Assembly (NCBI GenBank): GCA_050250935.1
Contig: JBFWNS010000001.1
Span: 512,122-576,121, forward strand
Source of the DNA: Candidatus Margulisiibacteriota bacterium
Lineage (GTDB): Bacteria; Margulisbacteria; Marinamargulisbacteria; JBFWNS01
Length of the DNA stretch: 64,000 nucleotides
Direction: 5' to 3'
The notes beneath the pieces are model-generated. The model was not told the DNA's origin and made no database searches. It saw nothing but the letters and a program-made list of their open reading frames with translations. Both the position numbers and the translations under genes were made by a program. Shown here piece by piece: positions 35,993-60,564 of the stretch. Each line of letters begins with the position of its first letter. Position 1 is the stretch's first letter.

Positions 35993-36079
35993 AGGGCTAT
36001 TTTTACCAAGGTCAAAATGTCCTTGTTTGGCTTGCCCATAGTTTTGATTTGATTCATCGTTAACGGGGTTGTGTAAAGA

Positions 36080-36216
36080 GCCGTTTTCGGTGCGGATCAT
36101 GGCCAGTTTTTGGTTGCCGCTGTAGAGGTATTTCACTTCGTAGGTGTTGGTGCTGGCCAGGCCTTCTCCAATTTGGTTTCCAGCAAGGTCCCATTGGATC
36201 CATTTTGTGGTGGCAT
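36080..36216 (-). pseudogene. Rhs core remnant (137 bp)
   Basis: Near-identical to 41663..41799 of the main rhs (ATTKWIQWDLAGNQIGEGLA..KLAMIRTENG); lacks DPDGE and CT. Confidence 0.85.
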
Positions 36217-36228
36217 ATTTACAAAGAC

Positions 36229-37927: not shown

Positions 37928-37990
37928 CAGAGGACTGTTGGCGGTATAGAGGTAGGGATTCAGGCATTGGCCGGATGGGTGGTTAGGGCA

Positions 37991-40124: not shown

Positions 40125-40302
40125 TCCTTTTTAAACTTTGCTTTTGCAAGCGTATCTTATATTTTTCAGTGGATTAAGTTTTTGGGGATGATTGCTGAGG
40201 TAGGCTTTTCCGATCCATTCGATTATAAATTTTATCTACATTCTGAGAATCGTGTTTCAGAGGGTTGGGCTTTTGAGTGCAGATCTTCAAATCCCTAAAA
40301 TT

Positions 40303-40548
40303 CTATTTGAAATGTAGAAATACGCATCCCCAAGCAAGCCATATAATAAACAATAAGATAATGTTTCCTATAGTTACCCCTTTTTCCCCAAATTCAGATT
40401 TTAAAAAATAGTTATTCTGAAAAAAACTGAAAAAATGGGCATCATAAAACCAGTCTTTTTTAAAAATCATGCCATAAATAATGAGTATGGTGACAAAAAG
40501 TAAAATACCTGCAAATAGTAATGAAAATCCGAGTGGAACAAGATACAT
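40303..40548 (-). CDS. Putative two-TM immunity protein for the main Rhs toxin
   Basis: 81 aa, two hydrophobic helices, 4 nt downstream of the rhs stop, AT-rich. Confidence 0.7.
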   Translation of the reverse strand: MYLVPLGFSLLFAGILLFVTILIIYGMIFKKDWFYDAHFFSFFQNNYFLKSEFGEKGVTIGNIILLFIIWLAWGCVFLHFK

Positions 40549-40552
40549 ATTT

Positions 40553-43500
40553 TTATCTCACGGGTACAGAATAATTAATAGGTAGTCCTATTCCAACCCC
40601 AGCTGAAAGACCTAGACCAAATTTCGTGCTCTTTCCATTAATAACACGAAGTCCTAGGTATTTAAAACCTGCAGTAACTGTACTCCGTTCGTCTATCCCT
40701 TTTGAGACCATATCTGCATAGAAACTGGCGCCAATTGATGGAATGACTTGAGCCGATTTTTGAAAACCGCTACCTCTGTCGTAATTTAATGAAAATTGCC
40801 AAACATCTATTGAGCCACCTAACCTCACATCCAAATTAGAGAGTCCATGACTCAGTTTTCCGGTGAAGCCAGTTAAGCGTTCTTTCAACCCTTCCCCAAA
40901 CTTATTATACAAAACATTATAAGCGCCAGACTGAAACCCGTTTGCAAAGCTTCCGCCAGCAGCCATGCTGGTGACGCCACCAGCGATACCTGCAATGCCG
41001 GCTTGCTCTAGCATGCCAGCCCCATTGCTGGCTTCGGCTGCCAAATTGCCTATAGCGCCCCCAACAAATCCAGAGCCAAAACTACCGCCACTGGTCATGG
41101 ATTGTAGGCCGCCCGAAACCCCATGTGCTAGGGTTTTTCCAAGTCCTTCTGTGGCATGTCCCATCATCTCGCCAACGCCAAAGCTGAGAGCGCCACTAAG
41201 GGCTCCAGAACCAAAGGCATTAAGAACGCCCTGGCCGTCAATTTTTCCGGTTAAGGCGAGTTGCATTCCGGCGTTAATGGCAGCGCTGGTGGCGCCGGCT
41301 TGAAGTGCAGAGACGAAAAGTGGGATTAGGAATTGAAAAAACTCCCCATCCGGATCGACATAGACCAGAGGACTGTTGGCAGCGTAGAGGTAGGGATTCA
41401 GGCATTGTCCTGCTGGGTCTTCGGTGAGGAAGCGACCGATTTCAGGGTCGTAGTGGCGTTGGTTGAAATAATACAAGCCGGTTTCGGGGTCTCGTTTTTT
41501 GCCGGTGTAGTTGATTTCGTGGGAGTTGGCATTCAATTTTATGGAGGGGCCTAGGTTGCCGAATTCGTCGAGGTTGATTTTGGAGACAACCATGTTGTTG
41601 GTGTCAATCATGATGACGGGAGTGCCTTGGGCGTTGTTGATGAAGTAGTAGGTTTTTTCTTGGCCGTTTTCGGTGCGGATCATGGCCAGTTTTTGGTTGC
41701 CGCTGTAGAGGTATTTCACTTCGTAGGTGTTGCTGGTGGCCAGGCCTTCTCCAATTTGGTTTCCAGCAAGGTCCCATTGGATCCATTTTGTCGTGGCATC
41801 TGTTTTTTTGTAGATGCGTTGGCGGTTTTCGTCGTATCCATAGGTGCCAATGGTGGTGCCGTCGTCTTTGGCTTGAACCAGTTGGCCTTGGTAGTTGTAG
41901 GTGTATGTGCGTTGGGTCTGGGGTTGGTTGGTTGGGTTGTACCGGGTGCGAGAGATTTGGTTGCCTTCGGCATCGTAAGCATAGAGGGTGTAGCGGCCAT
42001 CGGCTTGATTTTTTCGGACAATTTGATCTTGGTCGCTGGCCACAGTGATGTTCGGTTGGCCCAGGTTTTTGTTGTTTGGGCTTTCAAACCGGGTTGGGTT
42101 GCCGTTTTTATCCCATTGGTAGGTGTATTGGGGTTGTTGATTCAGCTGAACTTGGGTGAGCTGGTTTTTGGCATCGTAGGTCCAAGCACGGTTTATGGTG
42201 CTGCCCGTGCTGAAGAGATAGTCGTTGTGTTGGGTGGCGGTTGGAATCCCTTGGGCATCGTAGGCATAGGTTTGGGTGTACAGCGTGGTTCCCGAAGCCG
42301 TTTTGGCGGTGATGGATTTGAGCAAAATCTGTTTGTCGTAGGTGTAGGTGAGGGTTGTGCCATTACCCAGGGTAATCTGTGCAATGGTTCCGTTGGGGTT
42401 GTAGCTGTAGGTTGCCAAAGCGAGTCCGTTATAGCGTTGGGATTGGAGTTTTTGGTTAGAATCATAGGTGTAGGATAGGGCTTTCCCGTCGTTAAAGGTT
42501 AAGTTGGCCACTTGGCCGTTGGTGGGGTTGTAGGTATAGGTGCTTTGAACCGTTTTGGACAAGGCTTTAATGGTGGTTTGGGTTTGAATGGGACGACCGG
42601 CACTATCGTAGGTGTAGGTGGACAGGGCATCTGGGGTTTCGGCTTGCACCAGATGGCCTTTGCCATTGCTGCCTTGGTCGTAAGTTAGGGTTTCTTGAAC
42701 CGTGCCATTGAGCTTGGTTTGGGTAACCCGGCCTTCGACATCGTAGGCGTAGGCATAGGTTTTAGACAGTACTCCGGTTTTGTCGTAGATCGCAATGCTT
42801 TCGACCACATTGGGGGCTTGTTGGCTGTAGGTGGGGATGGTTCTTTGAAGGGTTCCTGTTCCCGGAAAGTAGGTTTTGGTGATTCTTCCGTAGGCATCTT
42901 GGTCGGCCTTGTGAATTAGCCCCCTTGGGTCTGTGGTGGTGGCCACTCGGCCAAAATTGTCGTAGGTAGACAGGGTTTGGCTGTTGTCTGGCACAAACAC
43001 CGTTTTCGTGGTTTGGTTCAGTTCGTTTTGGTAAGACACGGTTTGACGCCCCTTGGTATCCGTCACGGTTACGGTGTTGGACCCATCGTCATAGCTGGTG
43101 GTGGTGGTGCCAAAATCTGGGCTGGTGACGGTTTTTTTTCTTAAAAGATCGTCGTAGGTGTAGGATTTTTTCAAAGTCCAGGTGTTGGTGCCTGTGTAAA
43201 CGGCTAGGGGGAGGTCTCCGTAATAATAGTCGGTTTTAATGTCTTCTTCTCCGCTGGGGTTGTCCACCAAAATAGTGCGTCCCATGCTGTCCACGGTGCT
43301 GGCCACGGTTCGACCACCTCCGGTGACTGTGGTGGTTTTTAGATCGGAGCTATAGCTGTAGGTTATGGGGATGTTGTCGGGTCCAGTAGCGGAGATGACA
43401 CGTCCATAGGCATCATAGGCATAGGTGGTGATGCCCCCATTAATGCCCGTTATTTTGATGGGTTTTCCGGTAAACCCTTCCAGTTCTATGGTGCTGGTTT

Positions 43501-45610
43501 TTCCGTTCGTGGTTTGGGTGATGGTCTGTTTTGAAGGAGCATCCATATAGTTGAACTGCGTGGTGAGCGGTCCATTGGGGCCATATAGGGTTTGGGTTTG
43601 GATTCGACCGTTGTAAAAATATCGCATTTCTTTGAGAAGTTTTCCCGAGGAATCCCTTCCTTCACAAATAGAGGCTATTTTGTTGTTCCAATAGGTATAA
43701 AAAAAGGCATTTGTTCTCCCTTCAGGAGAAACGGTTTCTTTAGATTTTATTCGACCCAAAATATATCGGCGATTGAAATTCCAATCGACAATAGACGAAT
43801 CCCCAACCCCAGGCTCAGGATAATAATAAGTTAGTGTTGTTTGAAGGTCTGTTAGCCCAGATTTTTTGTGGGTAATAGACAGGGGATTATTGTAATCATC
43901 ATAGTCGTTGATAAGGGTTTCTTCCTGAATTTGACCATTGCGCTTTAAGATCGTTTTTTTGGGGATACGCTTATCCAGATCCCATTCCATAACTGTTTCA
44001 AAAGGCCCCATCGTTTTTTTTGCTATTAAACCATTTGTAAATGATAAAACTTCATCAGCGATAAAACTTGGATTGTCGATTGTAACTCCGTCCAAGGAAT
44101 AGATGGTATTGGATGACCATGTCGGTTTAAACTGCTGATGCTTTACGCCCAATCCTGTTGTGTTGTATAGAAACTGCGTTATCCAGGATTTCCCGTCAGC
44201 CGTGATCTTTTTACTCGAAATCAAAGGGGAGAGTGTCTCAATAGGTATATAACTTCCATTGTTCTCGCCCCCATTGATATAGGTATAAGCAATTTGTGTC
44301 CCCAAAGCTGTTTTAACACCACTTAATAAAAAACCATTTGCTCCTCTCCCATAATCAAAAGAACTGTAAGTATAGGTTTTTTTATAGGTATCTCCGATAG
44401 TGACTTCTGAAAGGTTGTTGTTCAAATCATAAGCATACTGAATACGGATTGGTGCCCCATTTGGCCCTGTGTAGGTTATTTTCGAGATTTGGCCATCTTG
44501 TTCTGTTTTTAGCCCGGGGGATGACGAAACGTATTCAAAGTTTATAATTCTATTTGATGTGTCGGTGATTTTTTTTAGCCGGACGTATTGAACACTATCA
44601 CCATTTATAAATCGGTCGGATCCCACAACTTGATAGTGAAAATAGAAATCCGCTTCTGAAATAACATCGCCCAAAATAGGAAACAAATAGGCTGCTAATA
44701 AATTATAATCTGTAGTGCCACCATTTTCATACTCAAGCGTAATTTGTTGATAGCCCTTACAAATTTTGGTCAATGATTTTCCCATTATGGCTACCCAGGG
44801 TAAATTTTCTGCCCCAGACAGTCTGTTTTTGTCGCCCCCCCAATAGTAAAAGAAATTTTGTCCAAAAATATAGGTTGTTCCATCTGGAGTTTCCAAGCGA
44901 ATGTCTTGGGGAAAGGTATCTGGGGAATCCGATCGGGCATAGGGCTCTTTTATAGCAAAGTAAGTTATCGGATTAGAAACATAAACTCTGTTAAAATTGC
45001 CGGGCTGTTTTGAAACGAAGGCCCCCAAGTTACCATCGTAGAAATACTCTGAAATGCCTTCATTGGTTTCTATTACTACCTTTTGATAGTTTCGATTTGC
45101 TATGAGCCCATTGCCGGAAGTGGTTTGCCCGTTATTCATAATGTAGGCACGCATCAGGAGATTTAGCCCCCATCCATGCCCGAAGCCCTGCCCTGATTTG
45201 CCCATAAAAGATAGTGGAGATAGAAGAGTCTTGCTTTTAAAAAATGATGAATTATAACTTCTGGATAACACCAAATCATGGCCCCCAATTCCAGGTAAGG
45301 TTAAGTCTATATCTGAAAATTTCAACTTACCTTGTGTTAAATCCACTTCCTCATGGGCAGGTCCGCCAAGATTCAGATTTAGACGAGAAACATCAGCTTC
45401 TGAAAATGATAATGAAGCGCCCATAAGTGCAGTTGAAGTTTTTTGTTCCCCAGTACGAATGGTTGGTTTTTCGGTCAATACATTTGTAGAGCTTAAATAA
45501 GGCAATATCTGTTGCATATCTTCACTCAATGTTTGAGCCATCAAAGGCATCTCAGGCAAAGAGTTGCTTAGAAAAAATAGAGAAAGAAGTATATAAATCG
45601 TCTTTTTCAA
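40553..45610 (-). CDS. Rhs/YD-repeat polymorphic toxin with N-terminal signal peptide
   Basis: 1685 aa; many YD repeats; Rhs core YTGKKRDPETGLYYF...DPDGE; Gly/Ala-rich hydrophobic CT; N-terminal MKKTIYILLSLFFL. Confidence 0.93.
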   Translation of the reverse strand: MKKTIYILLSLFFLSNSLPEMPLMAQTLSEDMQQILPYLSSTNVLTEKPTIRTGEQKTSTALMGASLSFSEADVSRLNLNLGGPAHEEVDLTQGKLKFSDIDLTLPGIGGHDLVLSRSYNSSFFKSKTLLSPLSFMGKSGQGFGHGWGLNLLMRAYIMNNGQTTSGNGLIANRNYQKVVIETNEGISEYFYDGNLGAFVSKQPGNFNRVYVSNPITYFAIKEPYARSDSPDTFPQDIRLETPDGTTYIFGQNFFYYWGGDKNRLSGAENLPWVAIMGKSLTKICKGYQQITLEYENGGTTDYNLLAAYLFPILGDVISEADFYFHYQVVGSDRFINGDSVQYVRLKKITDTSNRIINFEYVSSSPGLKTEQDGQISKITYTGPNGAPIRIQYAYDLNNNLSEVTIGDTYKKTYTYSSFDYGRGANGFLLSGVKTALGTQIAYTYINGGENNGSYIPIETLSPLISSKKITADGKSWITQFLYNTTGLGVKHQQFKPTWSSNTIYSLDGVTIDNPSFIADEVLSFTNGLIAKKTMGPFETVMEWDLDKRIPKKTILKRNGQIQEETLINDYDDYNNPLSITHKKSGLTDLQTTLTYYYPEPGVGDSSIVDWNFNRRYILGRIKSKETVSPEGRTNAFFYTYWNNKIASICEGRDSSGKLLKEMRYFYNGRIQTQTLYGPNGPLTTQFNYMDAPSKQTITQTTNGKTSTIELEGFTGKPIKITGINGGITTYAYDAYGRVISATGPDNIPITYSYSSDLKTTTVTGGGRTVASTVDSMGRTILVDNPSGEEDIKTDYYYGDLPLAVYTGTNTWTLKKSYTYDDLLRKKTVTSPDFGTTTTSYDDGSNTVTVTDTKGRQTVSYQNELNQTTKTVFVPDNSQTLSTYDNFGRVATTTDPRGLIHKADQDAYGRITKTYFPGTGTLQRTIPTYSQQAPNVVESIAIYDKTGVLSKTYAYAYDVEGRVTQTKLNGTVQETLTYDQGSNGKGHLVQAETPDALSTYTYDSAGRPIQTQTTIKALSKTVQSTYTYNPTNGQVANLTFNDGKALSYTYDSNQKLQSQRYNGLALATYSYNPNGTIAQITLGNGTTLTYTYDKQILLKSITAKTASGTTLYTQTYAYDAQGIPTATQHNDYLFSTGSTINRAWTYDAKNQLTQVQLNQQPQYTYQWDKNGNPTRFESPNNKNLGQPNITVASDQDQIVRKNQADGRYTLYAYDAEGNQISRTRYNPTNQPQTQRTYTYNYQGQLVQAKDDGTTIGTYGYDENRQRIYKKTDATTKWIQWDLAGNQIGEGLATSNTYEVKYLYSGNQKLAMIRTENGQEKTYYFINNAQGTPVIMIDTNNMVVSKINLDEFGNLGPSIKLNANSHEINYTGKKRDPETGLYYFNQRHYDPEIGRFLTEDPAGQCLNPYLYAANSPLVYVDPDGEFFQFLIPLFVSALQAGATSAAINAGMQLALTGKIDGQGVLNAFGSGALSGALSFGVGEMMGHATEGLGKTLAHGVSGGLQSMTSGGSFGSGFVGGAIGNLAAEASNGAGMLEQAGIAGIAGGVTSMAAGGSFANGFQSGAYNVLYNKFGEGLKERLTGFTGKLSHGLSNLDVRLGGSIDVWQFSLNYDRGSGFQKSAQVIPSIGASFYADMVSKGIDERSTVTAGFKYLGLRVINGKSTKFGLGLSAGVGIGLPINYSVPVR

Positions 45611-46709: not shown

Positions 46710-47759
46710 CTAAAGGCTGGTGGCTTCCGAGGGCAAACTGGCCCGTCTGCCCATCCATTTGAGCAGGCGTGCGGACATCAGTTTCGCTTGGACGATGCTG
46801 GAGAGTTTCTCGACCAATTTGTGGTTTAAAAAGGGTTTGGTGACATAGTCGGTGGCCCCAGAGCGCAGGGTTTTGACGATCAGGTCCGTGTCTTTGAAGG
46901 CGGTTAACATGACAATGGGGATGTTGGGGTTGGCGGCTTTGAATTCCGAAACCCATTTGTCCCCAGATTTGCCGGGCATGCCGATGTCTAGCAAAATTAA
47001 ATCGATGCTGGTTTCGCTGGTTCGGGTGGCCGTAATTTTTTCGAGGGCGTCTTCCCCTGAGGTGGTTTTGAGAACGGTAAACTCGGTGATGAGGGCCATT
47101 TCGATGCCGTCGAGCATGTGGGGTTCATCGTCGATGGCCAAAATGACGGGTTTGGGCCAATTGCCCAATTGCTTGGTATGGGTTTTGGTTTCCATGGCTT
47201 GCAAAATTTCGGGTTGCGTCATGTCGATAAACGGGTCGTGATAGGGAAAATACAGGGTGATTTCGCTGGGCAGAATGGGGCTTCCCGATTCCTTTTTTTG
47301 AGCCAGAAATTTTTTGAAATTTTCAAGGCGTTCTTCGATTTCGAAGGTGGTATTGCGTTCCAGCTCCCGATTCAGAACCTCGTGGGCCACTTGGGTGTCG
47401 AAGGATTGTTTAACGGCAATGCGAAATTCCAGGTCATGGAAAGGACGCTGAAGAATATCGGCGGCCCCAATTTTCATCCATTCCACAGCGGTTTTGGCGG
47501 TCAGATGGTTGCTCAGAACCAAGATGTGGGGTAGTCCTAAAAAAGCTTCAATTTTGGGAATCAGGTCGGTGGGTGAGGCGTCTGGCAGGGTGGCCGACAA
47601 AATAATCAAGGGGGTGACGGGATTGGTTTCCAAGGTTTCCAGTGCTTCTTTGGCCGAGGTTGCGGTTAGGACGTGGAAATTCTCTTCTTTTAAGACGGTT
47701 TCCATCCAAGAAAGTTCAGTTGGCGTTTCTTCGACCAGCAGTACTTGAGTTTGACGCAT
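46710..47759 (-). CDS. Tandem receiver-domain protein with no output domain
   Basis: N-terminal degenerate REC (LIILSATLPD, no phospho-Asp); C-terminal canonical REC (IDDE, LLDIGMPG, MLTA, DYVTKPF). Confidence 0.85.
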   Translation of the reverse strand: MRQTQVLLVEETPTELSWMETVLKEENFHVLTATSAKEALETLETNPVTPLIILSATLPDASPTDLIPKIEAFLGLPHILVLSNHLTAKTAVEWMKIGAADILQRPFHDLEFRIAVKQSFDTQVAHEVLNRELERNTTFEIEERLENFKKFLAQKKESGSPILPSEITLYFPYHDPFIDMTQPEILQAMETKTHTKQLGNWPKPVILAIDDEPHMLDGIEMALITEFTVLKTTSGEDALEKITATRTSETSIDLILLDIGMPGKSGDKWVSEFKAANPNIPIVMLTAFKDTDLIVKTLRSGATDYVTKPFLNHKLVEKLSSIVQAKLMSARLLKWMGRRASLPSEATSL

Positions 47760-50056: not shown

Positions 50057-52771
50057 CTACCCCACCGGCAAAAACAAACGAAACGCCGTTCCTTTTCCCA
50101 CTTCCGAGTCCACCTGAATGGTGCCGCCGTGGGCCAGGATGACGTCTTGAAGAATCGAAAGACCTAGGCCGGCGTTTTTGCCACCGGTTGGGCCTTTGGT
50201 GGTGAAGAAGGGGTGGAAGATTTTTTCTTTGGTTTCGGCGGAAATGCCGGGACCGTTGTCGGCGATATTGATTTCGATGCCCGGAATCTGGCGGCCCTGG
50301 TGGCCCAGAAAAGTGGCCTTTTTGGCGGTGACGACAATGGATTTGTCGGGTTTTTCCAGCGGTTCTAGGGCTTGAATGGCGTTGAACATCACATTAAACA
50401 CGGCTTGCTGAAGCCGCAATTCGTCGCCGCGAATTTGGGGCAGGGATTTATCGAGATCCAGGGTTAGGGTAATGGCAATCTTGTGGGCACTGCCGGCCAA
50501 AATGCTTTGGGCGCTTTTAAGAATTTTGGCGACGTCGACCTTGGTTTTGACCGCACCTGGTGTGTTTTGAATGTGCCATTGCACGGCATGTTCGACGGGC
50601 AAAAATCGGGGGGATACATTCAATTTGAAGTTGGGGGATTCGTATTGAAAAGACTCCAAGGCATAGCCTTTGTTGTCCAAATAGCCCTTCTCGACCAACT
50701 CGTCGAACAAGGCTTCGGAGTCGGTTTCGGAGATCCCTTCGATTTGGGTGAAGCTGTCTTTTTTGACTCCACCCCCAGACATGCCATAGCGCATCATGTT
50801 GTCGGCGATGTACAAAATGCGGGTGTACTGGGTGGCGGCGGTGTTCAGATAGGTATAGACCCCAGCCAGTTGCAGAACGGTTTTCATGGCCTCTCGGATG
50901 GCGACGATGTGGTCCTTAAAAGCGTCTCCCAAATCCAGCTCCGAGGCGTCCATCAGCAAGGGATTGAGCTTGGTGGTCAGTTCCCCGGCTTCTGTAAGGT
51001 AGCCTTCGGCTTGCAGGGCTTCTACCACCAGGCGGGCTTGGGTTCTGTCTCCACCGACAGCCCATAAAAACTGTTCGGGTCCCACAAAAAACCGCCAGAG
51101 CCGCTGGTGATAATCGTCGTTTTCGTCGACCACATCGTAGTGGGTGCCGCCCAATTTATCGGCCAAAAACAACATGTGGGCTTGCATGGCGGCCATGGGA
51201 TTTCGAATTTCGTGTGCAATGCCGGTGGCCAAGGTGGCCAAAGAGGCTTTATGAGAGAGTTCTTGGGCGATGCGGATGCTGGTTTCGCTTTTTTGGACCT
51301 CTTCTTGAACGCGTTTTTGAAGTTCTTGGTTGAGGGAGTCCAGTTGGTCGTAGGCGTTTTTGAGTTTTTCTTGGTGTGCAATGCGGTCAAAAACGATCAT
51401 CACTTGCGAAATAACCGAGGCAAAGAGTGCAATGTCTTGCTGAGTCCAAGGTTCTTCGGAGAGTTTGGGGCCTAAAATCACCAGGCCTTGTAAATAGAGG
51501 TTGGAATGAAAGGGAATGACCAAGCTGCCTTTAAACGGCGACAAGGGGAAACGGTGTTTGAGTTCGGGGTCCAGGTCGTCCCAAAACACGATCGAACCAT
51601 CGGCGTGAAAGCGTTGGATCAGCAGGTTTTTGGGGGGAAGGACGTGTTCGGTATGGGCCCGGGCATCCAAGGACGCCGAGAGTTCTTGGCAGTGGTATTC
51701 GACCCGGTGGGACAATTCGTTTTCATAGGCCAAAACGGTAATGACATTTTTAATTTGGATGGTATTGGCAAATTCCCCAGTGACAACGGCAATGACATCG
51801 TCCCTGGAATTGGCAATAAACAACCCCTGAGAAATGGCCTGAACAACCTTTTCGACGTTGTAAAAGCCCTTCAAAAACTTGGTTTCCAAGGGGGTCTGAA
51901 TCAGCCGCTGAATATCCTGCCCATAGCCATACCAAGCCAACCCCAGCAGCATGTAAAACGGCAACGAAAACCCAACCCCCAAACTCGTCAACACCCCATA
52001 CAAAACCCCAAACGACCCCGCCGCCACCACCCCTGTAATGATCTTGGAGTCGCGTTTGGCGATTAGGACTTTGATGTCCATTAGGTTGTGTTTGGTGATG
52101 AGGTAAGAGGTCATTAGAGCAAAGACACCAAGAAGAGCCGAGGAGCTTAGGTTAAGAAGGCTGGCCAGGAAAGGTGTAAATTTAAAAAGGATAAGAATGA
52201 AGTAACATAGGCCTGCTAGTATCAAAATATTTAAGGCGATTAGTAGGCGGAAAAATTTCTGTTTTTCGGCTATTGCAGGAGTGGCTTTAATTTTTTTTAA
52301 AAGTTCCCAGAACATTAAAATGGAAATAGTAGAAAAAAAGATTAAATAGATGTACCAAAAAAAATCTGGTGTGGTAACAAATCGAGCCCCAAAGTACAGG
52401 GTTACGCCCGTACGAAACTTCCAAAACCAATTCGATAAAAATAATAGAGCCCCTAAAATGCCGCTTACATAAAGATAGACGATAAAGTTGCTCAAAATAA
52501 AAGTGTTTACCACCGCTACAAGCGAGATAGGAAATATAACTGCAACGCTGTAAATGAGCTTATCGGTTAAAAATGCAAGTTGATAGGAATGTGTATTACT
52601 TTGAACGTAGCACCCCATTGCCCAAAAAAATAACAAAACGCAAAACCATAAAAAGATTCGATTTTGTGTGCTTTGGTTACTTTTTGTGAAAACATATATC
52701 CCTAAAACAAGTGTAAAAATCCCAGAGACTAATGGAGACAGGCGGCTAATTTCTATGATGAGATGCAGCAC
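50057..52771 (-). CDS. Sensor histidine kinase HK3 (7TM sensor - membrane/GAF-like linker - HisKA with insertions - HATPase)
   Basis: Multi-TM N-terminus; GIAHEIRNPM H-box; FNVMFNAIQA, IADNGPGI, IFHPFFTTK, GLGLSI. Confidence 0.93.
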   Translation of the reverse strand: MLHLIIEISRLSPLVSGIFTLVLGIYVFTKSNQSTQNRIFLWFCVLLFFWAMGCYVQSNTHSYQLAFLTDKLIYSVAVIFPISLVAVVNTFILSNFIVYLYVSGILGALLFLSNWFWKFRTGVTLYFGARFVTTPDFFWYIYLIFFSTISILMFWELLKKIKATPAIAEKQKFFRLLIALNILILAGLCYFILILFKFTPFLASLLNLSSSALLGVFALMTSYLITKHNLMDIKVLIAKRDSKIITGVVAAGSFGVLYGVLTSLGVGFSLPFYMLLGLAWYGYGQDIQRLIQTPLETKFLKGFYNVEKVVQAISQGLFIANSRDDVIAVVTGEFANTIQIKNVITVLAYENELSHRVEYHCQELSASLDARAHTEHVLPPKNLLIQRFHADGSIVFWDDLDPELKHRFPLSPFKGSLVIPFHSNLYLQGLVILGPKLSEEPWTQQDIALFASVISQVMIVFDRIAHQEKLKNAYDQLDSLNQELQKRVQEEVQKSETSIRIAQELSHKASLATLATGIAHEIRNPMAAMQAHMLFLADKLGGTHYDVVDENDDYHQRLWRFFVGPEQFLWAVGGDRTQARLVVEALQAEGYLTEAGELTTKLNPLLMDASELDLGDAFKDHIVAIREAMKTVLQLAGVYTYLNTAATQYTRILYIADNMMRYGMSGGGVKKDSFTQIEGISETDSEALFDELVEKGYLDNKGYALESFQYESPNFKLNVSPRFLPVEHAVQWHIQNTPGAVKTKVDVAKILKSAQSILAGSAHKIAITLTLDLDKSLPQIRGDELRLQQAVFNVMFNAIQALEPLEKPDKSIVVTAKKATFLGHQGRQIPGIEINIADNGPGISAETKEKIFHPFFTTKGPTGGKNAGLGLSILQDVILAHGGTIQVDSEVGKGTAFRLFLPVG
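51194..52105. repeat. 912-bp direct repeat, copy A (constant region of HK3)
   Basis: Matches 54407..55318 at offset 3213; I saw only three substitutions, all synonymous, near the H-box end. Confidence 0.95.
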
Positions 52772-52789
52772 GGACTGAATCCTTTTTGA

Positions 52790-54310
52790 TTAAATTCTTT
52801 TCTTTGCTATTGGTAGCACAAGATCTTTCAGTTTTTGAACTGTTTTTTCAATTTGCTGAAAGGTGTGATTCGCAGTAACAATGAATCTTAATCTCCCATT
52901 CCCTCTTTTAACAGCAGGGTAAACAACAGAAACTGTAAATATACCCGCATTTAAGAGGCTTTGAGAAGCTTTTAGTAGCGCTTCCTCATTATCTATAAAG
53001 ATTGGAATTACAGGGCTTTTAGAGTGACCAAGTTCAAAGCCACTTTCTAAAAGAAGCGTTCTCATGTAGATGTTATTTTGGTGAAGACGTTTTGTAATAC
53101 TAGAATCTTTTTCTAAAATTTCTAAAGATGCAATAACTGCTGCTGTATCGGCAGGACTGCAAGCTGCTTGAAAAATATAAGCATTCGCAGCCCATTCTAA
53201 CAATGCCCGAAACTTTTTAGCGCAGGCGATAAATCCACCTACCGATGCCGTTGCTTTTGACAAAGTTGACATTAAAAAATCCACTTGTTCCGTAACCCCT
53301 AGCTCAGAGCATAGCCCTGCTCCGCGCTGTCCGTAAAAACCGAAGGTATGAGCTTCATCAACATATAAAAAAAACTTGAATTGTTTTTTCAATTCACAAA
53401 TTGCTTGAAGCGGGGCTAAATCGCCTGACATAGAATAGGCCGATTCCACCACAACAAAAACATTTAAAAATTGATCCTTAATGGAAGAGAGTTTTTTTTC
53501 TAGATCGTTAACATCATTGTGGCGAAATGAAAGAAAAGTTGCTCCGGAAAGTCGAATGCCATCAATGATAGATGCGTGGCTTTCTCGATCAAAAATGATT
53601 AAATCTTTTTTTGTGGCCAAGCCAGATATGGCGCCAAGGTTTGTACTGTAGCCGGTAGGAAAGTAAAGGGCATCTTCTTTGCCTACTAAAGAAGCCAGCT
53701 TTATTTCTAGATGTTTGTGAAGGCTATTGTGCCCACAAGACATGGCGGAGGTGCCTGCACTTGTGCCATATTGGGCAAGGGCTTTTTGGGCAGCCTGGAT
53801 CACACGAGGATCGCGATTAAGCCCTGTGTAGTGATTGATGCACCAAAGAATGGCGTTTTTTTGTGCTCCAGTATTTGGGTCTTGGACAATCCCTTCTACT
53901 GAACTACCACTAACAGTAAAAAAATTTTGAGAAAATAATCCTTCTTGAATTTGGGTGTTTTTATGCTTTGTTAACTCAGTTGCAATTTCATTAAGAGGGA
54001 CATCGGCCTTTAACAACTCTTGGTAGAAAGAAAGAATGGGCTGTTGAGGTTTAGTTCCTAAGAAAGATGGAGCAGTGGGGGATCTTGTTTTGAACGCTAA
54101 GTTGGATAGTGAAATCACCGGTCTTCCATCTTCCGTGACGCCAACGACTGCAGATTTATCGGCGAGGTCTTGGTAGAAGGGGTTCTTCTCTAGGGTTTGG
54201 CGGTCTTGTTCAGATAGGGTTTTAGGGTGGTCTGGGAGACCATTTTCGGTTGTAGGTGATGGGGTTGAGGAGTTCACAAGGGTTTCTGAGGACGAGGCGT
54301 TCGTCGTCAT
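52790..54310 (-). CDS. PLP-dependent alpha-oxoamine synthase family enzyme (BioF/Spt/Kbl/CqsA superfamily); candidate signal synthase
   Basis: FPTGYSTN, DRESHASIIDG, FRHND, ESAYSMSGD, VDEAH, STLSKA (PLP Lys), RLRF; ~100-aa N-terminal extension. Confidence 0.88.
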   Translation of the reverse strand: MTTNASSSETLVNSSTPSPTTENGLPDHPKTLSEQDRQTLEKNPFYQDLADKSAVVGVTEDGRPVISLSNLAFKTRSPTAPSFLGTKPQQPILSFYQELLKADVPLNEIATELTKHKNTQIQEGLFSQNFFTVSGSSVEGIVQDPNTGAQKNAILWCINHYTGLNRDPRVIQAAQKALAQYGTSAGTSAMSCGHNSLHKHLEIKLASLVGKEDALYFPTGYSTNLGAISGLATKKDLIIFDRESHASIIDGIRLSGATFLSFRHNDVNDLEKKLSSIKDQFLNVFVVVESAYSMSGDLAPLQAICELKKQFKFFLYVDEAHTFGFYGQRGAGLCSELGVTEQVDFLMSTLSKATASVGGFIACAKKFRALLEWAANAYIFQAACSPADTAAVIASLEILEKDSSITKRLHQNNIYMRTLLLESGFELGHSKSPVIPIFIDNEEALLKASQSLLNAGIFTVSVVYPAVKRGNGRLRFIVTANHTFQQIEKTVQKLKDLVLPIAKKRI

Positions 54311-54382
54311 AAAGAGTCTCCTTCACAGGAAAAGATTTCCCCCGACTCAAGCCAACGCGTTTTGGAATGAATTTTTGTTAGT

Positions 54383-55936
54383 TTAGCATATCCGCAAAAG
54401 AAATCTCATGGGATTTCGAATTTCGTGGGCAATGCCGGTGGCCAAGGTGGCCAAAGAGGCTTTGTGGGAGAGTTCTTGGGCGATGCGGATGCTGGTTTCG
54501 CTTTTTTGGACCTCTTCTTGAACGCGTTTTTGAAGTTCTTGGTTGAGGGAGTCCAGTTGGTCGTAGGCGTTTTTGAGTTTTTCTTGGTGTGCAATGCGGT
54601 CAAAAACGATCATCACTTGCGAAATAACCGAGGCAAAGAGTGCAATGTCTTGCTGAGTCCAAGGTTCTTCGGAGAGTTTGGGGCCTAAAATCACCAGGCC
54701 TTGTAAATAGAGGTTGGAATGAAAGGGAATGACCAAGCTGCCTTTAAACGGCGACAAGGGGAAACGGTGTTTGAGTTCGGGGTCCAGGTCGTCCCAAAAC
54801 ACGATCGAACCATCGGCGTGAAAGCGTTGGATCAGCAGGTTTTTGGGGGGAAGGACGTGTTCGGTATGGGCCCGGGCATCCAAGGACGCCGAGAGTTCTT
54901 GGCAGTGGTATTCGACCCGGTGGGACAATTCGTTTTCATAGGCCAAAACGGTAATGACATTTTTAATTTGGATGGTATTGGCAAATTCCCCAGTGACAAC
55001 GGCAATGACATCGTCCCTGGAATTGGCAATAAACAACCCCTGAGAAATGGCCTGAACAACCTTTTCGACGTTGTAAAAGCCCTTCAAAAACTTGGTTTCC
55101 AAGGGGGTCTGAATCAGCCGCTGAATATCCTGCCCATAGCCATACCAAGCCAACCCCAGCAGCATGTAAAACGGCAACGAAAACCCAACCCCCAAACTCG
55201 TCAACACCCCATACAAAACCCCAAACGACCCCGCCGCCACCACCCCTGTAATGATCTTGGAGTCGCGTTTGGCGATTAGGACTTTGATGTCCATTAGGTT
55301 GTGTTTGGTGATGAGGTAGGCAATCGCAATTGTGTAAATAGAAACAAAGAAGTTTGCAAAAGGTGGGATGGGTATATTCATCCATAAAAAGTAATTGGTG
55401 CTGCCGCCTGAAAAAGCGATCAGAGTAAAACAAAAAATCAGTAAAAATTTTCTATCTTTTGTTTTGAGGTATTCCTTCCACAATAAAACATGGGCCAGTA
55501 AAACGTTCCCTAGAAAGTAGCCTAAGAATGGAAAAAATAGATGTCCGGCTTTTGGCCAAAGGGAAAACATCATCACAGGCTCTAACTTTAATATGAGTGT
55601 ATTTGTTAGGAGCTGAGAGCTAAAAAATAAACTACATCCCAGATTAAAATAAAATAAAATGGACTGGGTTTTTGAAGATTTATCAACCAGCTCATAAATA
55701 AAGTTAGTAAAAAAGAAGGGGATAAAGGCTGCCCCGACCATCAATAATCGACAATAAAGTAGAGCGGTGTTGTAATCTGTACTGTATTGCCAAAAAAAAT
55801 AGAAAAAGCTCCAAAAAGCTATTCCTAAATTGTAGAGGATATAGTATTTATACCTTGACTTATTGTGCGCAAAAATAGCTGCGAGAGCTAATGCTGTAAT
55901 ACAGTTTACAGCTGCAGAAATCCCAAAAAAATTCAT
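54383..55936 (-). CDS. Truncated sensor kinase HK2 (distinct 7TM sensor plus shared constant region, ends just after the H-box)
   Basis: Multi-TM N-terminus diverged from HK3; identical to HK3 from YLITKHNLMDIK to HEIRNPM, then RFLLRIC-stop; no HATPase. Confidence 0.9.
   Translation of the reverse strand: MNFFGISAAVNCITALALAAIFAHNKSRYKYYILYNLGIAFWSFFYFFWQYSTDYNTALLYCRLLMVGAAFIPFFFTNFIYELVDKSSKTQSILFYFNLGCSLFFSSQLLTNTLILKLEPVMMFSLWPKAGHLFFPFLGYFLGNVLLAHVLLWKEYLKTKDRKFLLIFCFTLIAFSGGSTNYFLWMNIPIPPFANFFVSIYTIAIAYLITKHNLMDIKVLIAKRDSKIITGVVAAGSFGVLYGVLTSLGVGFSLPFYMLLGLAWYGYGQDIQRLIQTPLETKFLKGFYNVEKVVQAISQGLFIANSRDDVIAVVTGEFANTIQIKNVITVLAYENELSHRVEYHCQELSASLDARAHTEHVLPPKNLLIQRFHADGSIVFWDDLDPELKHRFPLSPFKGSLVIPFHSNLYLQGLVILGPKLSEEPWTQQDIALFASVISQVMIVFDRIAHQEKLKNAYDQLDSLNQELQKRVQEEVQKSETSIRIAQELSHKASLATLATGIAHEIRNPMRFLLRIC
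54407..55318. repeat. 912-bp direct repeat, copy B (constant region of HK2)
   Basis: See 51194..52105. Confidence 0.95.
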
Positions 55937-55940
55937 GTCA

Positions 55941-57071
55941 CTAGTCCTTTTTTTGGATTTCCAAGTAGAGGATGGTGTTGTTTCCTCCTCTAAATAAGGT
56001 CTTTCTTTTCATATGCTCAAACGGAATATCCTGTGATAAGGTCTCCATTTCGGGAAATTCTCTGTAAATTAAAAACCAATCCATGAATGTTTCCATATAC
56101 CCTCGATCAACGGTGTCGTGTACAAAATTAGATACCAGTAGGTATCCCCCTGGTTTTAAAAGTTTAAACATAATGGAGGTTAGCTTTTGAGCCATTCTTG
56201 GGCTTAGGTAGTCATACAAGCCAGCCGCATAAACAAAATTAAAAGAATTTTCTTGAAAGTGAGAATGTCCTTTAATGAGACTAAAAACTGATAATTCTTG
56301 CGTTGTAATATTAAGGGAAGAATATTTTTCTTGGACTTTCTTTAGGGTTTCGGGATCGTGATCAAGGGCCAAAAACTGGCTTAGTTTTTTGCTTTGAACC
56401 ATCTTTGAATATTCAGCTTCGTGAAGGTGGCCGCAGGCTATTGAAAGGACGGTAGAATTAGGCGCATTTTCGGTTATCTCGTCGATTCTAGAGGCGATGA
56501 TTCTGATTCGATCACGAAGTGCTTCTCCGGACGGGCGGGTAACTGTGTAAGCCTGGATGGGGTTTGTTGAGTTGGTATCTTGATAAAAATAATCCAATAA
56601 AGCAGCGTCACCGGGGTAGCCTCTGGGTTTATCGAAACTGTGTTTTGTACAGGGGTCTCTAAAGATTATTTTAGAAATGGGGTGAGATAAAATGACCTTT
56701 TTTGCTGCTGATTTCCATATTTCTTCATGAGTTTCTTTCCTTAGGAGATTTAACTGCGTATAAAGATACTCCAAAGAAGGCAACAGGTTTTCAGTAGCAG
56801 CTTTTGTGTAAATATCGGTTAGAATTGCTTCCAGTTTAATTCTAAAACTGGTTTCGACGCTCTCGAAAATACCTGGAAAGGCTAGTCGTTCTGCTTTATA
56901 AACGGGTTTTGTAGGGGCAGGTGTATCGGACGGTTTTTGGTCGACATTGGAAAAATGAAGGCCAGAATAATGATTTAAGTCTGGAGTCGCTTCAGTTTTG
57001 GTTAGATGGTCTGATAAATCCGTAGAAACGGCATCTTTATAAGAAAAAGAAGTGGGTTTTTCCTGAGGCAA
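55941..57071 (-). CDS. Class I SAM methyltransferase, PhcB-like (3-hydroxy fatty acid methyl ester signal synthase family)
   Basis: KPRGYPGD, LSIACG, FVYAAGLYDYL, LKPGGYLLVSNF, METFMDWFLIYR; motif set recalled for the PhcB-like family and not verified by search. Confidence 0.75.
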   Translation of the reverse strand: MPQEKPTSFSYKDAVSTDLSDHLTKTEATPDLNHYSGLHFSNVDQKPSDTPAPTKPVYKAERLAFPGIFESVETSFRIKLEAILTDIYTKAATENLLPSLEYLYTQLNLLRKETHEEIWKSAAKKVILSHPISKIIFRDPCTKHSFDKPRGYPGDAALLDYFYQDTNSTNPIQAYTVTRPSGEALRDRIRIIASRIDEITENAPNSTVLSIACGHLHEAEYSKMVQSKKLSQFLALDHDPETLKKVQEKYSSLNITTQELSVFSLIKGHSHFQENSFNFVYAAGLYDYLSPRMAQKLTSIMFKLLKPGGYLLVSNFVHDTVDRGYMETFMDWFLIYREFPEMETLSQDIPFEHMKRKTLFRGGNNTILYLEIQKKD

Positions 57072-57155
57072 AATAAACTCCTTGGAAGGAAGTTCCCCTT
57101 AATTAAATAGCTAAGCGAATGGATTGGCTTCAGTCTATCATAATGCTTTGCATTT

Positions 57156-58754
57156 TCAGAGCGCTTTTATCTTAATTACAATCCCAGTCCCCCGACCCAT
57201 TTCAGAAGCCACAGAAATGCGTCCACCGGAGCTGGCAACGACTTTTCCCACAAAGGCCATTCCCAATCCATGACCCGTGGCCTTGCTGGTAAAGGATTGG
57301 CTGAAGAGTTTGGCTTGGACCTCTGGGCTCATGCCGGGGCCAGAGTCTTGGATGGAGAGTTCAAGGGTGTCGTTTTTTTGAGTGGCTCGAAACTGGAGGG
57401 TGTCGGTGGGGCGTTCGGGGTCTGCTTCTCGGGCTTCTTTGATGGCCTGGATGGCGTTGAGGGCTAGGTTCAAAAAGACCTGGAACCATTCGGATTCGTT
57501 GCCTTTGAAAGACAGGGTTTGAGGGCAGTCGATGGCGACTTCAATTTGAAGCATTCGGGTTTGAGCAATGAGTAATTCGGCGACGTTGGTGAAGAGCGCG
57601 TGGACGGTAATGGAGGTTTGTTCGGCTTGGCCCTTGTTGCCGTAGAGCATGATTTCGCTGAGGTGATGGAGCCGGGTTACACAGCTCAGAACCATGTCTC
57701 CAAACTTTTTGGCGATAGCGGGGTCTTCGTGGCCGACGGCGGGGCTGCCGAGTTGAATCATGCTCATTTGGTTTAGAATTTCGTGGGCAAAGCTTTTGCT
57801 GGCGGCGCCAAAGGCCGCTTCGTTGGCCAGTTTTTCGGCGGTTTCAATGGGGAGAATGAGGCGGTCGGTTTGGGTTTGGAGGTGGGTGCGGATGGGGTCG
57901 AAGGCAAACGCAAAGATTCCCAAGAGAAGTATAGAGAAAATGGTTTGTGAAAATAAGTTGTCCAGTATATGTGTCTGCCACAAGCTAAATTGAAGACCTA
58001 TGGTTATTACTGAAAAAAGGCAAAAGGTGATGGTAAATGCTAAGGTCTTGCTGACAGCCACTTTCATATTAAAGAGCTGGTGTTTGGTGATGCTGTATGC
58101 AACTGTTAAAGCCAATAAAGAAGGAGCTATTACACCAATTGGGTATAGCTTTATCCCAAAAACCAAAGGGAAAGTCGTTGCGCCACCGGTAAAACCAAGG
58201 ATCATTGACCCGAATAAAAGTCTCATTTGATCTTTGGGTAAATCATCACGTTCTAGGTAGGCCTTGTATAGCAAAAAAAGGCCAAAACAAACCAGCGCAG
58301 AGAATTGTAATGGAAAAAAGAAATAAAGTGGTCCTGCCACTGGATAAAGTGAAAACCAAGCAGCCGGCTTAACATCCGAAACAAAATAGGCGGGTAGAAG
58401 CAGGCATATACAGAAATAAACTGTGGTTATCGCAAAAAAAAATTTCAGTATGGCTCTTTTTTGAATATTGAGATAATTAAAAACAAATTGCAGGAAAAAA
58501 ATGGGTATGAAAATTGCAACCAGGTTTAAAAACCGAGCCCAAAATAATACCTCTGTTTTACTTTTAAATGTAAAGGCACAAAAAATACCTACTCCCCAAA
58601 GCCCTATAAAAAGTCCAAATAGTAGCCATGAAAAAATATCTGGTCGCCGGGTATTTTTTCGGACAATATAAGCTGTTAAAAAACATAAAGCAAAGATTAA
58701 TAGGCCGCTGATATTTAGATAATTTGGATGAAAGTAGAGTGATCCAATGCGCAT
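57156..58754 (-). CDS. Sensor histidine kinase HK1 (7TM sensor - HisKA - HATPase)
   Basis: Multi-TM N-terminus with AIFIPIFF and YSITKH; FAHEILNQ H-box; NLALNAIQA, IQDSGPGM, FTSK, GHGLGM. Confidence 0.9.
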   Translation of the reverse strand: MRIGSLYFHPNYLNISGLLIFALCFLTAYIVRKNTRRPDIFSWLLFGLFIGLWGVGIFCAFTFKSKTEVLFWARFLNLVAIFIPIFFLQFVFNYLNIQKRAILKFFFAITTVYFCICLLLPAYFVSDVKPAAWFSLYPVAGPLYFFFPLQFSALVCFGLFLLYKAYLERDDLPKDQMRLLFGSMILGFTGGATTFPLVFGIKLYPIGVIAPSLLALTVAYSITKHQLFNMKVAVSKTLAFTITFCLFSVITIGLQFSLWQTHILDNLFSQTIFSILLLGIFAFAFDPIRTHLQTQTDRLILPIETAEKLANEAAFGAASKSFAHEILNQMSMIQLGSPAVGHEDPAIAKKFGDMVLSCVTRLHHLSEIMLYGNKGQAEQTSITVHALFTNVAELLIAQTRMLQIEVAIDCPQTLSFKGNESEWFQVFLNLALNAIQAIKEAREADPERPTDTLQFRATQKNDTLELSIQDSGPGMSPEVQAKLFSQSFTSKATGHGLGMAFVGKVVASSGGRISVASEMGRGTGIVIKIKAL

Positions 58755-58764
58755 AGTGGTATGT

Positions 58765-58941
58765 CTAAAAAAACGGCTTACGATATACGTCCCGGCGGTG
58801 GGCTATTCTGAAAACGATAATTTGGCTTCCTTCAACGGTGTACAAAATTCGATAATCTCCCTCTCGAATGCGAAAGGCTTTGGACGCTCCGGCTAGTTCT
58901 TTGGCAGCGCTTATTCTAAGCGAAAGATTAAAGGCGGCCAC
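58765..58941 (-). pseudogene. RelE/ParE-family toxin with internal in-frame deletion (58 aa)
   Basis: Below ORF-track cutoff. GTG-AAFNLSLRISAAKELAGASKAFRIREGDYRILYTVEGSQIIVFRIAHRRDVYRKPFF; the usual central helix between AKEL and LAG is missing. Confidence 0.8.
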
Positions 58942-59146
58942 TTTTTTTAAGTTTGTTTTGCAAGGTGTCTATAGAAACGGTTTCTTCATGGTCTCTTTCA
59001 GCCAAAATGGTTAGATCGGCTAGATCTTCGATCAAATGTTGGTACACATCGAAGGTTAGCAAAACCATGCTTTTATTCCCTTGTTGATCCAAAACAAACT
59101 GGGGATTGAGTTGTGAATATTTTTTAAGGAGGTCTTGTTTTTTCAT
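58928..59146 (-). CDS. Putative type II antitoxin
   Basis: 72 aa, QFVLDQQGNKSMVLL..YQHLIEDLADL..; overlaps the RelE-like start by 14 nt. Confidence 0.75.
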   Translation of the reverse strand: MKKQDLLKKYSQLNPQFVLDQQGNKSMVLLTFDVYQHLIEDLADLTILAERDHEETVSIDTLQNKLKKSGRL

Positions 59147-59266
59147 GTCAAAAGGCTGCCTGTTTGTGGGTGTGTTTAAGAACCCAGTGCTCGTTTTATT
59201 GTACTTAAGCTCAAAAGCGGTTTCAAGCTAGTTTTTGGAAGTGGCTGGGCTGGTTGACAGTTAAAT

Positions 59267-59397: not shown

Positions 59398-60564
59398 GTG
59401 GTTATGAATAAGAAGGACCGTGTAGGGCGTTATGCCCAGTGTGTGGTAAAGACAGAATCGTATAAGGCGTATATCCCACAAAAACTGCCTCCAAAACCCG
59501 ATTTAGAGCTGGCGCCACTTTACAAACTATTGGATGAGGCGAACGCAGCGTTGGGGCGTTTGGATGGGATGAGATTTGTACTGCCAGACCCGTCTTTATT
59601 TTTGTATCTCTACATCCGAAAAGAGGCCCTTTTGTCTTCTCAAATTGAAGGCACCCAATCGTCTTTGTCTGATCTGCTTCTTTTTGAAGCAGAAGAAATG
59701 CCAGGCGTTCCTATCGAGGATGTGACGGAAGTTTCTTGTTATGTAGCTGCGATGAACTATGGATTGGCGAGGCTTAAAGCGTTTCCATTGTCTTTGCGGT
59801 TAATCCGAGAAATTCATGAAAAATTGATGACCCATTCCCGCGGTGGGCATAAAGCGCCTGGTGAATTTCGGCGATCTCAAAACTGGTTAGGGGGGTCCCG
59901 TCCTGGAAATGCCCGGTTTGTTCCCCCTCCACCTGAATATATTCTGGAACTATTGGGGGATCTTGAAAATTTTATTCATGATGAAACCATACAATTACCC
60001 GTGTTGGTTAAAGCCGCTTTGGTCCATGTTCAATTTGAAACCATTCACCCTTTTTTAGATGGAAATGGACGTCTGGGTCGTTTGTTAATTACGTTTATGC
60101 TCTGTGCCGAAGGGGTCTTACAAGAACCGTTGCTCTATTTAAGTTTGTATCTTAAATCAAACCGACAGGCTTATTATGATCATCTTCAACAGGTTCGGGA
60201 AACAGGCGATTGGGAAGGGTGGATTGTCTTTTTTTTAGAAGGAATTATTGAAACAGCAACACAAGCGACAGAAACGGCTCAGCGTATTTTGGCGCTGTTC
60301 CAACAAGACCATCATAAAATTGCTACCTCAGCAAAGGCTTCGAGAACAGCTTTGCAGGTGCATGCGTATTTGCAAAGGCATCCGGTGGTAACCACTTCTC
60401 ACCTGACAAAAGCCCTTAAAGTCGCATTGCCAACCATCTTAAGGGCCCTAGGACTCTTGCAAACGCAAGGCATCATTCGCGAAATTACAGGAAAAAAACG
60501 CCATCGCATTTTTGTTTATCACGACTATTTTGAAATTTTGAGTCAGGGGACGGAGCCTATTTAG
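59398..60564 (+). CDS. Fic family protein with N-terminal inhibitory helix and C-terminal HTH
   Basis: HPFLDGNGRLGR Fic motif; SSQIEG inhibitory motif. Confidence 0.95.
   Translation: MVMNKKDRVGRYAQCVVKTESYKAYIPQKLPPKPDLELAPLYKLLDEANAALGRLDGMRFVLPDPSLFLYLYIRKEALLSSQIEGTQSSLSDLLLFEAEEMPGVPIEDVTEVSCYVAAMNYGLARLKAFPLSLRLIREIHEKLMTHSRGGHKAPGEFRRSQNWLGGSRPGNARFVPPPPEYILELLGDLENFIHDETIQLPVLVKAALVHVQFETIHPFLDGNGRLGRLLITFMLCAEGVLQEPLLYLSLYLKSNRQAYYDHLQQVRETGDWEGWIVFFLEGIIETATQATETAQRILALFQQDHHKIATSAKASRTALQVHAYLQRHPVVTTSHLTKALKVALPTILRALGLLQTQGIIREITGKKRHRIFVYHDYFEILSQGTEPI

Follow-up and report, generated by a model that had tools for sequence, protein, structure and literature searches.

Two enzyme–sensor cassettes around a 912-bp direct repeat in a histidine kinase locus of a Margulisiibacteriota bacterium

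This study concerns a histidine kinase locus in a stretch of 64,000 nucleotides (the window; all positions below are counted in it) from a Candidatus Margulisiibacteriota bacterium (assembly GCA_050250935.1, contig JBFWNS010000001.1, positions 512,122 to 576,121). The order on the minus strand is a histidine kinase (HK-A), an S-adenosylmethionine (SAM) methyltransferase, a second, truncated kinase gene (HK-B), an oxoamine synthase, and a third kinase (HK-C). HK-B and HK-C share a 912-bp direct repeat. On balance we consider this repeat to be probably the scar of an old additive insertion, by which the resident sensor would have been severed from its catalytic tail and a new sensory head, head C, wired to that tail. 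The locus thus likely preserves a record of the way in which bacteria of this group acquire and exchange probable chemical-signal "dialects"; it looks like an old, stable insertion and not like a flipping switch.

The direct repeat and its junctions

The two copies of the repeat, 51194..52105 (copy 1) and 54407..55318 (copy 2), lie on the minus strand at an offset of 3213, have a G+C content (GC) of 50% each, and are identical at 909 of 912 bases. The three mismatches (51215/54428, 51251/54464, and 51254/54467) are all synonymous changes of a third codon base, no more than 61 bases from the H-box end; random clustering of all three at one end has a chance of about 0.0006, and the other 851 bases are identical. 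Each copy has one counterpart only in the 1.95-Mb genome. The limits of the repeat are module limits, from YLITKH, where the seven-transmembrane (7TM) sensor head ends, to HEIRNPM in the H-box. An earlier reading made from the letters alone (the sequence-only reading) had described a near-identical repeat with three synonymous changes and these same limits, and was correct on both points. It had also proposed that one crossover between the copies would delete the synthase and head C and fuse head B to the tail. Such a fusion would be in frame, because head B (206 codons), the repeat (304), and the catalytic tail (379) are all whole numbers of codons. The unit removable by this crossover (52106..55318, minus strand, 3213 bp) was defined by arithmetic; excision was not observed. 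GC changes stepwise at the repeat edges, from 35–37% in the heads and 39–41% in the enzymes to 50–54% in the repeat and tails; a profile of GC at third codon positions was also computed.

HK-C (50057..52771, minus strand, 904 amino acids) is a full kinase composed of head C (52106..52771, 7TM sensor, 222 codons, GC 37%), repeat copy 1, and a tail (50057..51193, GC 54%) that encodes the rest of the dimerization and histidine phosphotransfer (DHp) domain, with insertions, and HATPase_c. HK-B (54383..55936, minus strand) is an open reading frame (ORF) of 517 amino acids composed of head B (55319..55936, 7TM sensor, GC 35%) and repeat copy 2; its sole Pfam match is PF16927. It ends 7 residues past HEIRNPM, so that the histidine is retained while the second DHp helix and the ATPase domain are missing; HK-C has both the H-box and the HATPase domain. 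In PF16927 searches heads A and B scored above the cut-off and head C below it (20.4–25.1 against 28.6 bits), yet with an E value of 1e-5; head C had no significant match to head B by BLAST (E 0.65). An AlphaFold model of HK-B (mean predicted local distance difference test score 84.8) has seven helices in residues 3–212, then another two, a GAF domain, and a long helix that spans 428 to 507. The GAF domain was matched by fold search and was also found in 7 of 32 aligned family members. From the domain order in the model we conclude that the repeat covers the whole stretch from the 7TM head to the phospho-histidine, that is, two further helices, GAF, coiled coil, and H-box. An internal repeat within the HK-C tail was looked for and was not supported (E 7.9). 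Paralogous tails of the HK-C type occur elsewhere in the genome: one (G000:C7:126367-127568) meets a contig end just before the H-box, a place at which the assembly could be broken by a variable head or repeat, and another (G000:C10:9363-14531) is fused to a 1722-residue Ser/Thr kinase-AAA sensor.

The tandem arrangement was examined in Logan contigs, not reads, from four of the five sequencing runs found (X1, X2, X3, and X5; X4, with a share of 0.07, was omitted), and uncovered parts were not counted as evidence. X1 may well be the source run of this DNA, and is hence not independent. In X1 the repeat was collapsed into one contig at a depth of 35.9, the head B flank had a depth of 19, and a loop contig with head C, the synthase, and its leader had a depth of 17.4 and met the repeat at both ends with zero mismatches. 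The synthase-side joint, 54406/54407, was crossed by an X1 contig (52076-54458) that extends 52 bases into the repeat, and the junction of head C with the repeat was bridged in X3 (51722-52167). With the repeat at each of its ends, the loop contig does not represent one of two strain alleles lying side by side; a chimeric assembly of two alleles, the finding that by its own account would have overturned the sequence-only reading, was thereby rejected.

Depth was informative in two further respects. The simulated repeat depth was 35.7 with no hidden differences and 32.8 with five; because the observed 35.9 fits zero hidden differences, an origin of the near-identity in the merging of diverged copies by the assembler was rejected. 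The loop-to-flank depth ratio was 0.92 (about 0.81–1.02 assuming 150-nt reads), so that the loop was present about once per chromosome in X1, with no sign of amplified circles. The comparison of 52106..54406 with its flank, proposed earlier as a test for excision, thus gave about one copy (17.4 against 19) and no clear excised fraction, within what contig depths resolve (a minority of deleted or amplified chromosomes is possible). A fusion of head B, repeat, and tail has the same short-read junctions as the tandem, and short contigs cannot phase the repeat.

The age of the joint was assessed with X5, a run from another study whose pieces differ from the window by 0.4–5.8%. An X5 contig over 54407-55108 had 41 differences in 702 bases; 15 of the 41 were listed, and 13 of these 15 were silent. 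Two X5 contigs stop at one shared position inside the repeat, matching a branch at the same H-box joint: one branch continues into the tail (7 differences in 382 bases) and the other (54172-54436) into the leader and synthase (10 in 265). Because X5 appears to branch at the same joint and its joint-bearing contig differs at 10 of 265 bases, the joint is likely, although not certainly, older than the split from the X5 strain. If so, the joint likely predates a divergence of about 4%, while the two copies differ by 0.3%, all at one edge. The one-edge pattern suggests later homogenization by recombination between the copies. In X2, a contig from 54360 carries at least 255 unlike bases on the synthase side, which may be another cassette after the joint or a chance match.

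Association of heads with enzymes in relatives

Relatives of the constant region were found in 72 of 146 genomes of the phylum, and homologous loci or proteins carry the public names Marinamargulisbacteria, Riflemargulisbacteria, Termititenax, and WOR-1. The survey set comprised 63 stretches (the window and 62 others) with 68 such heads, 54 of which had a closely coupled upstream gene. Four pairs in which this neighbor was another sensor or regulator were left out, giving 50 labelled pairs. In 46 of the 50 the neighbor was an enzyme of recognizable class: 13 methyltransferases of the PhcB-like type, 10 oxoamine synthases, 5 HAD-like enzymes, 4 enzymes like 3-hydroxy-3-methylglutaryl-CoA (HMG-CoA) reductase, 4 polyketide synthases, nonribosomal peptide synthetases, or acyl-AMP ligases (PKS/NRPS class), 3 other methyltransferases, 2 acyl reductases, and 5 singletons, including a FeeM-like synthase. 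The HMG-CoA-reductase-like enzymes in the cassette slot are at L016:6624-7988, L017:10682-12016, L062:4804-6000, and L064:4818-6074, the last with an oxoamine synthase gene just upstream.

The nearest head belonged to the same enzyme class in 29 of 43 cases (mean of shuffles 6.1, maximum 19 in 5000) and to the same genome in 0 of 28. For the nearest constant region the corresponding counts were 5 of 43 and 9 of 28. This contrast of head against constant region is an internal control. Loci picked by their enzyme gave the same result: all three new methyltransferase loci had head-B-type heads, the nearest head of the closest methyltransferase (40%) being head B (E 2e-47), and all three new synthase loci with Margulisbacteria names had head-C-type heads, whereas none of three weaker synthase homologues taken as controls had a 7TM head. 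The synthase subfamily was also followed across phyla: of its 55 loci, 17 had a kinase gene immediately downstream, and 5 had a 7TM head, which in each case was of the head C type. In a head tree, built by a quick method with many long branches and used as illustration only, head C grouped with the heads that follow the closest synthases, and the nearest heads to head B follow methyltransferases. The kinases that follow this synthase subfamily in Bacillota and Deltaproteobacteria belong to another family, of about 950 residues (L094, L096, L101, L102, L104, L105, L108, L113, L118, and L127).

Judged from these comparisons, head type is co-inherited with enzyme type, independently of the catalytic part. 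The pairing of methyltransferase with head B and of synthase with head C, taken for granted in the sequence-only reading, agrees with both the nearest heads and the six of six enzyme-picked loci. Exchange of cassettes on constant kinase parts, also suggested there, is supported by the GC steps, by the contrast of 29 with 5 in 43, and by an X5 contig over HK-A (57156..58754, minus strand). HK-A consists of a HisKA_7TM head (head A) and a short histidine kinase (PF16927 and PF02518; H-box at 324, HATPase). The X5 contig matches the HK-A tail except at 5 of 578 bases; from 57905, at a GC step, it changes to a different upstream part, of which 129 unlike bases read in frame as a different hydrophobic stretch. 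By its sequence this is probably a second head allele on the HK-A tail, and the contig is single-contig evidence for exchange among close strains. No enzyme gene was found immediately upstream of HK-A; two short ORFs, by eye antitoxin-like and a RelE-type fragment, lie at 58770-59150, with a Fic-family gene beyond them at 59398-60564.

The methyltransferase (55941..57071, minus strand, GC 39%, Pfam Methyltransf_25) is PhcB-like: among the matches listed, 13 of 120 are named "3-hydroxypalmitic acid methyl ester biosynthesis protein" (Joint Genome Institute annotation; 36–42% identity). The synthase (52790..54310, minus strand, GC 41%) is a pyridoxal phosphate (PLP)-dependent alpha-oxoamine synthase of the AONS/SPT family, in which the catalytic residues H245, D318-E-A-H321, and K352 are intact and invariant across five aligned homologues. 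That it is a CqsA orthologue was ruled out, because it scores 218.9 bits against the NF005526 cut-off of 428 and serine palmitoyltransferase is a nearer match (E 5e-73) than CqsA (E 1e-31). A double receiver-domain protein (46710..47759, minus strand; Pfam Response_reg in two stretches) is, by its proximity, a possible phospho-acceptor.

Chains with more than one head occur in the family: 41 of 150 representatives (including P0017 and P0060) have two or three heads ahead of one GAF and kinase. Sensor-only ORFs with 7TM, GAF, and coiled coil, of 518–548 residues, occur at L023:254-3417 (G019, two) and L058:4190-5836 (G070). The two ORFs of L023 lie in tandem and differ in their heads, with 80% likeness along 906 bp of the constant region; this pair was the closest approach to the arrangement studied here, as none of the 62 other loci had a near-identical head/constant repeat.

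Origin of the tandem and rival explanations

The leaders of the two cassettes bear on the origin of the tandem. That of the methyltransferase cassette (57072..57155, minus strand) begins after the HK-A stop codon, and that of the synthase cassette (54311..54406, minus strand) begins at the contig-spanned, nonhomologous joint (54406/54407). The two align in this same register with a score of 50, compared with 25.7 ± 6.4 for shuffles (0 of 2000 reached 50); as a control, 1 of 1314 unrelated stretches of the window scored above 50. Within the two leaders no sigma-70 consensus promoters stood out (16 sites found, 13.6 expected). The similarity of the leaders suggests that there is a single slot between HK-A and the constant region, and that the two cassettes are allelic versions of its content.

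We favor, by a modest lean, an additive insertion. Homology within the kinase would have anchored one side of an incoming fragment of leader, synthase, head C, and constant region, and an illegitimate joint at the resident H-box would have closed the other. The methyltransferase-head B sensor would thereby have been cut off from the catalytic tail and head C wired to it, and RecA-type exchange since then would keep the copies alike; a double crossover would instead have swapped the cassettes cleanly. Homology-facilitated illegitimate recombination has been proposed for displacement arrays of the type VI secretion system (T6SS) (PMC5361080). Each enzyme would make an acyl-derived small molecule (a fatty-acid methyl ester by one; an amino-ketone or hydroxy-ketone by the other) that is sensed by its own 7TM head; that the enzymes make signals for their own heads is inferred from how tightly the genes are coupled, from their co-inheritance, and by analogy with phcBS and cqsAS. 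Ordinary homologous recombination could restore a methyltransferase-head B-kinase, but such a reversion would not be programmed. The tandem state is apparently rare, as expected of an accident, yet long-lived.

The sequence-only reading had derived the same end product from single-crossover integration of a circular cassette. The product stands, but the circle is not needed, since a linear fragment suffices in one event and a circle needs two. As a full account, a single crossover with a foreign circle was rejected because it would scatter differences along the whole repeat and not at one end. Tandem duplication followed by head replacement requires the same illegitimate joint plus an extra event and was set aside as less economical.

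Several observations weigh against the insertion account or limit it. No single read or contig spans the whole tandem, and the X1 depths lack a kinase-tail contig. The X5 contigs reach 30 bases into the repeat, one short of the 31-base bridge rule; X5 depth is 3–8 and may reflect a strain mix, and its repeat contig, at 4.0, is not at double the depth of its neighbors (3.8 and 5.4). In the counts of heads and enzyme classes, kin are not independent, and the gene next after the closest synthase homologue (60%, L074) is receiver-like, with no 7TM head before the contig ends about 580 bases on. A donor was not found: the bacterium's own family and genus have no other genome, and among metagenome contigs 112 candidates gave two distant loci. 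ComEC, DprA, and RecA are encoded, but the presence of ComEC and DprA says little because both also occur in 10–11 of 14 control genomes. Linear and circular intermediates give the same end product. Finally, the long survival of a 912-bp direct repeat requires selection or a low deletion rate, on which the insertion account itself is silent.

Because this persistence is unexplained, weight remains with an alternative that shares the same origin, which we nevertheless regard as rather unlikely. In it selection keeps the truncated HK-B as a second input, which would bind HK-C by way of the GAF, coiled coil, and H-box that both proteins share; two signals would feed a single kinase, or one would damp it, and gene conversion would keep the interface matched. 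HK-B is an intact ORF of 517 residues with the histidine present and its own enzyme upstream. The modelled helix is unbroken from 428 to 507, but the second DHp helix is absent. The near-identity of the repeat, with the joint likely old, counts in favor of such selection, but conversion between the copies would preserve HK-B without it. That 13 of the 15 X5 differences shown (of 41 in all) are silent points in the same direction, although these differences are not assignable to either copy. The family offers parallels in the 41 of 150 representatives with two or three heads per chain and in the sensor-only ORFs of 518–548 residues in relatives (L023 twice, L058), even though some short family members may be contig-end fragments. 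As a tentative extension, there may be two unrelated signal chemistries on one kinase: HK-B would pair with HK-C, gene conversion would hold the interface identical, and through the same repeat some cells of the population could drop one dialect and change cleanly to the other.

We doubt that the locus is a working specificity switch. On that model the 3.2-kb unit would leave the chromosome as a circle and later return, so that head-C and head-B kinases coexist in the population. The in-frame geometry suits it, and the 851 identical bases, with the one-end clustering (chance about 0.0006), imply recent exchange between the copies. The X1 loop depth is 8% under the flank, but a ratio of 0.92 is within sampling error of 1. 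Fusion of Rhs orphans by recombination is a precedent (PMC3967940). Since the unit carries neither an origin nor a recombinase nor attachment sites, a clone that released the circle would lose it and could not change back. Near the locus no gene for a tyrosine or serine recombinase was found, the nearest PF00589 and PF00239 genes on the contig being more than 440 kb away. In addition, the joint is apparently conserved in the diverged X5 strain, and a second near-identical repeat of this kind was found in 0 of 62 other loci. The suggestion in the sequence-only reading of a switch caught in the act was thus unsupported, given the joint apparently shared with X5, the depth ratio, and the lack of a nearby recombinase. 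An assembly artefact, with two strain alleles or a free circle wrongly built into a single contig, is very improbable: the 851-bp identical stretch cannot be phased by short-read contigs and the X1 depths lack the tail contig, but the loop contig meets the repeat at both ends without mismatch, a 3.2-kb circle with no origin could not be maintained at one copy per cell as a loop at 0.92 of the flank would require, and the joint recurs in another study (X5).

Significance and comparison with known systems

How signal maker and receptor change together without a deaf intermediate is a long-standing question for systems of the agr and com type. This locus shows the state with both alleles and defined junctions, which makes the route of change testable. 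It also anchors a family of HisKA_7TM sensors whose candidate ligands can be named, because 46 of 50 neighbors are of recognizable enzyme classes and head type tracks class. Two natural heads on an identical constant region with one kinase are a ready-made specificity experiment. If the reading of two chemistries on one kinase is true, the locus would be the first physical view of phylum-wide enzyme-7TM receptor pairs shuffling specificity.

In domain layout the kinases resemble HisKA_7TM (PF16927)-GAF kinases such as PrsK, with 7TM head, GAF, coiled coil, DHp, and HATPase. PrsK has the 7TM head-GAF kinase architecture; the match to the PrsK model is weak, however (56.9 against 300 bits). In Ralstonia phcBSRQ, PhcB is the methyltransferase and PhcS the kinase. 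As there, a methyltransferase with PhcB-annotated homologues lies directly upstream of a membrane sensor kinase gene; unlike there, the sensor is of the HisKA_7TM-GAF type and truncated, no phcR/phcQ arrangement was identified at the locus, and the PhcB likeness is by annotation of homologues. The other pair resembles CqsA/CqsS of Vibrio, LqsA/LqsS of Legionella, and JqsA/JqsS of Janthinobacterium, in which an enzyme of the PLP oxoamine synthase family adjoins a membrane kinase, but the sensor is a HisKA_7TM head and not of the CqsS type. Adjacencies of oxoamine synthase and kinase have been catalogued in genomes of the candidate phyla radiation (PMC7567580). Shufflon, invertase, and integrase switches have a dedicated recombinase and short specific sites; here the repeat is long coding homology.

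The layout is like that of Rhs main and orphan genes, in which a partial copy of a constant region stands in frame with an alternative variable part and recombination would fuse it to the working gene. For Rhs orphan modules, recombination has been shown in Salmonella (Koskiniemi 2014, PMC3967940); it was not seen at the kinase tandem. For sequential T6SS displacement in V. cholerae, the proposed origin was additive insertion by homology-facilitated illegitimate recombination (Kirchberger 2017, PMC5361080). The kinase tandem is a mirror image of Rhs orphans, its variable part being N-terminal and sensory, its orphan having its own start codon and partner enzyme, and its role being signalling and not toxicity. 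In the window itself a 1685-residue Rhs gene precedes orphan modules whose core ends are repeated, in a textbook orphan layout (35780-45610); these repeats are 412 bp at 97%, with pairs of 86–91% spaced 1744–1762, and lie 5 kb from the kinase tandem.

In comQXP(A) of Bacillus and agrBDC(A) of staphylococci, as here, the signal gene and the sensor part vary together while the catalytic part is constant. In such pherotype systems the variable part of the kinase is its N-terminus. Polymorphism of ComQXPA into pherotypes has been described (PMC4008528). The partners here, unlike there, are not alleles of a peptide signal with a processing enzyme but unrelated small-molecule enzymes (methyltransferase, oxoamine synthase, HMG-CoA-reductase-like, HAD, PKS/NRPS, and acyl reductase), the signal is inferred only, and a repeat links two cassettes in tandem. 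The open-access literature searched yielded no account of a tandem of this kind, nor of cassettes that join an enzyme to a HisKA_7TM sensor in Margulisbacteria. We conclude that the locus works like a pherotype cassette with a mirror-image Rhs-orphan layout; it is a member of neither group and is not a programmed switch.

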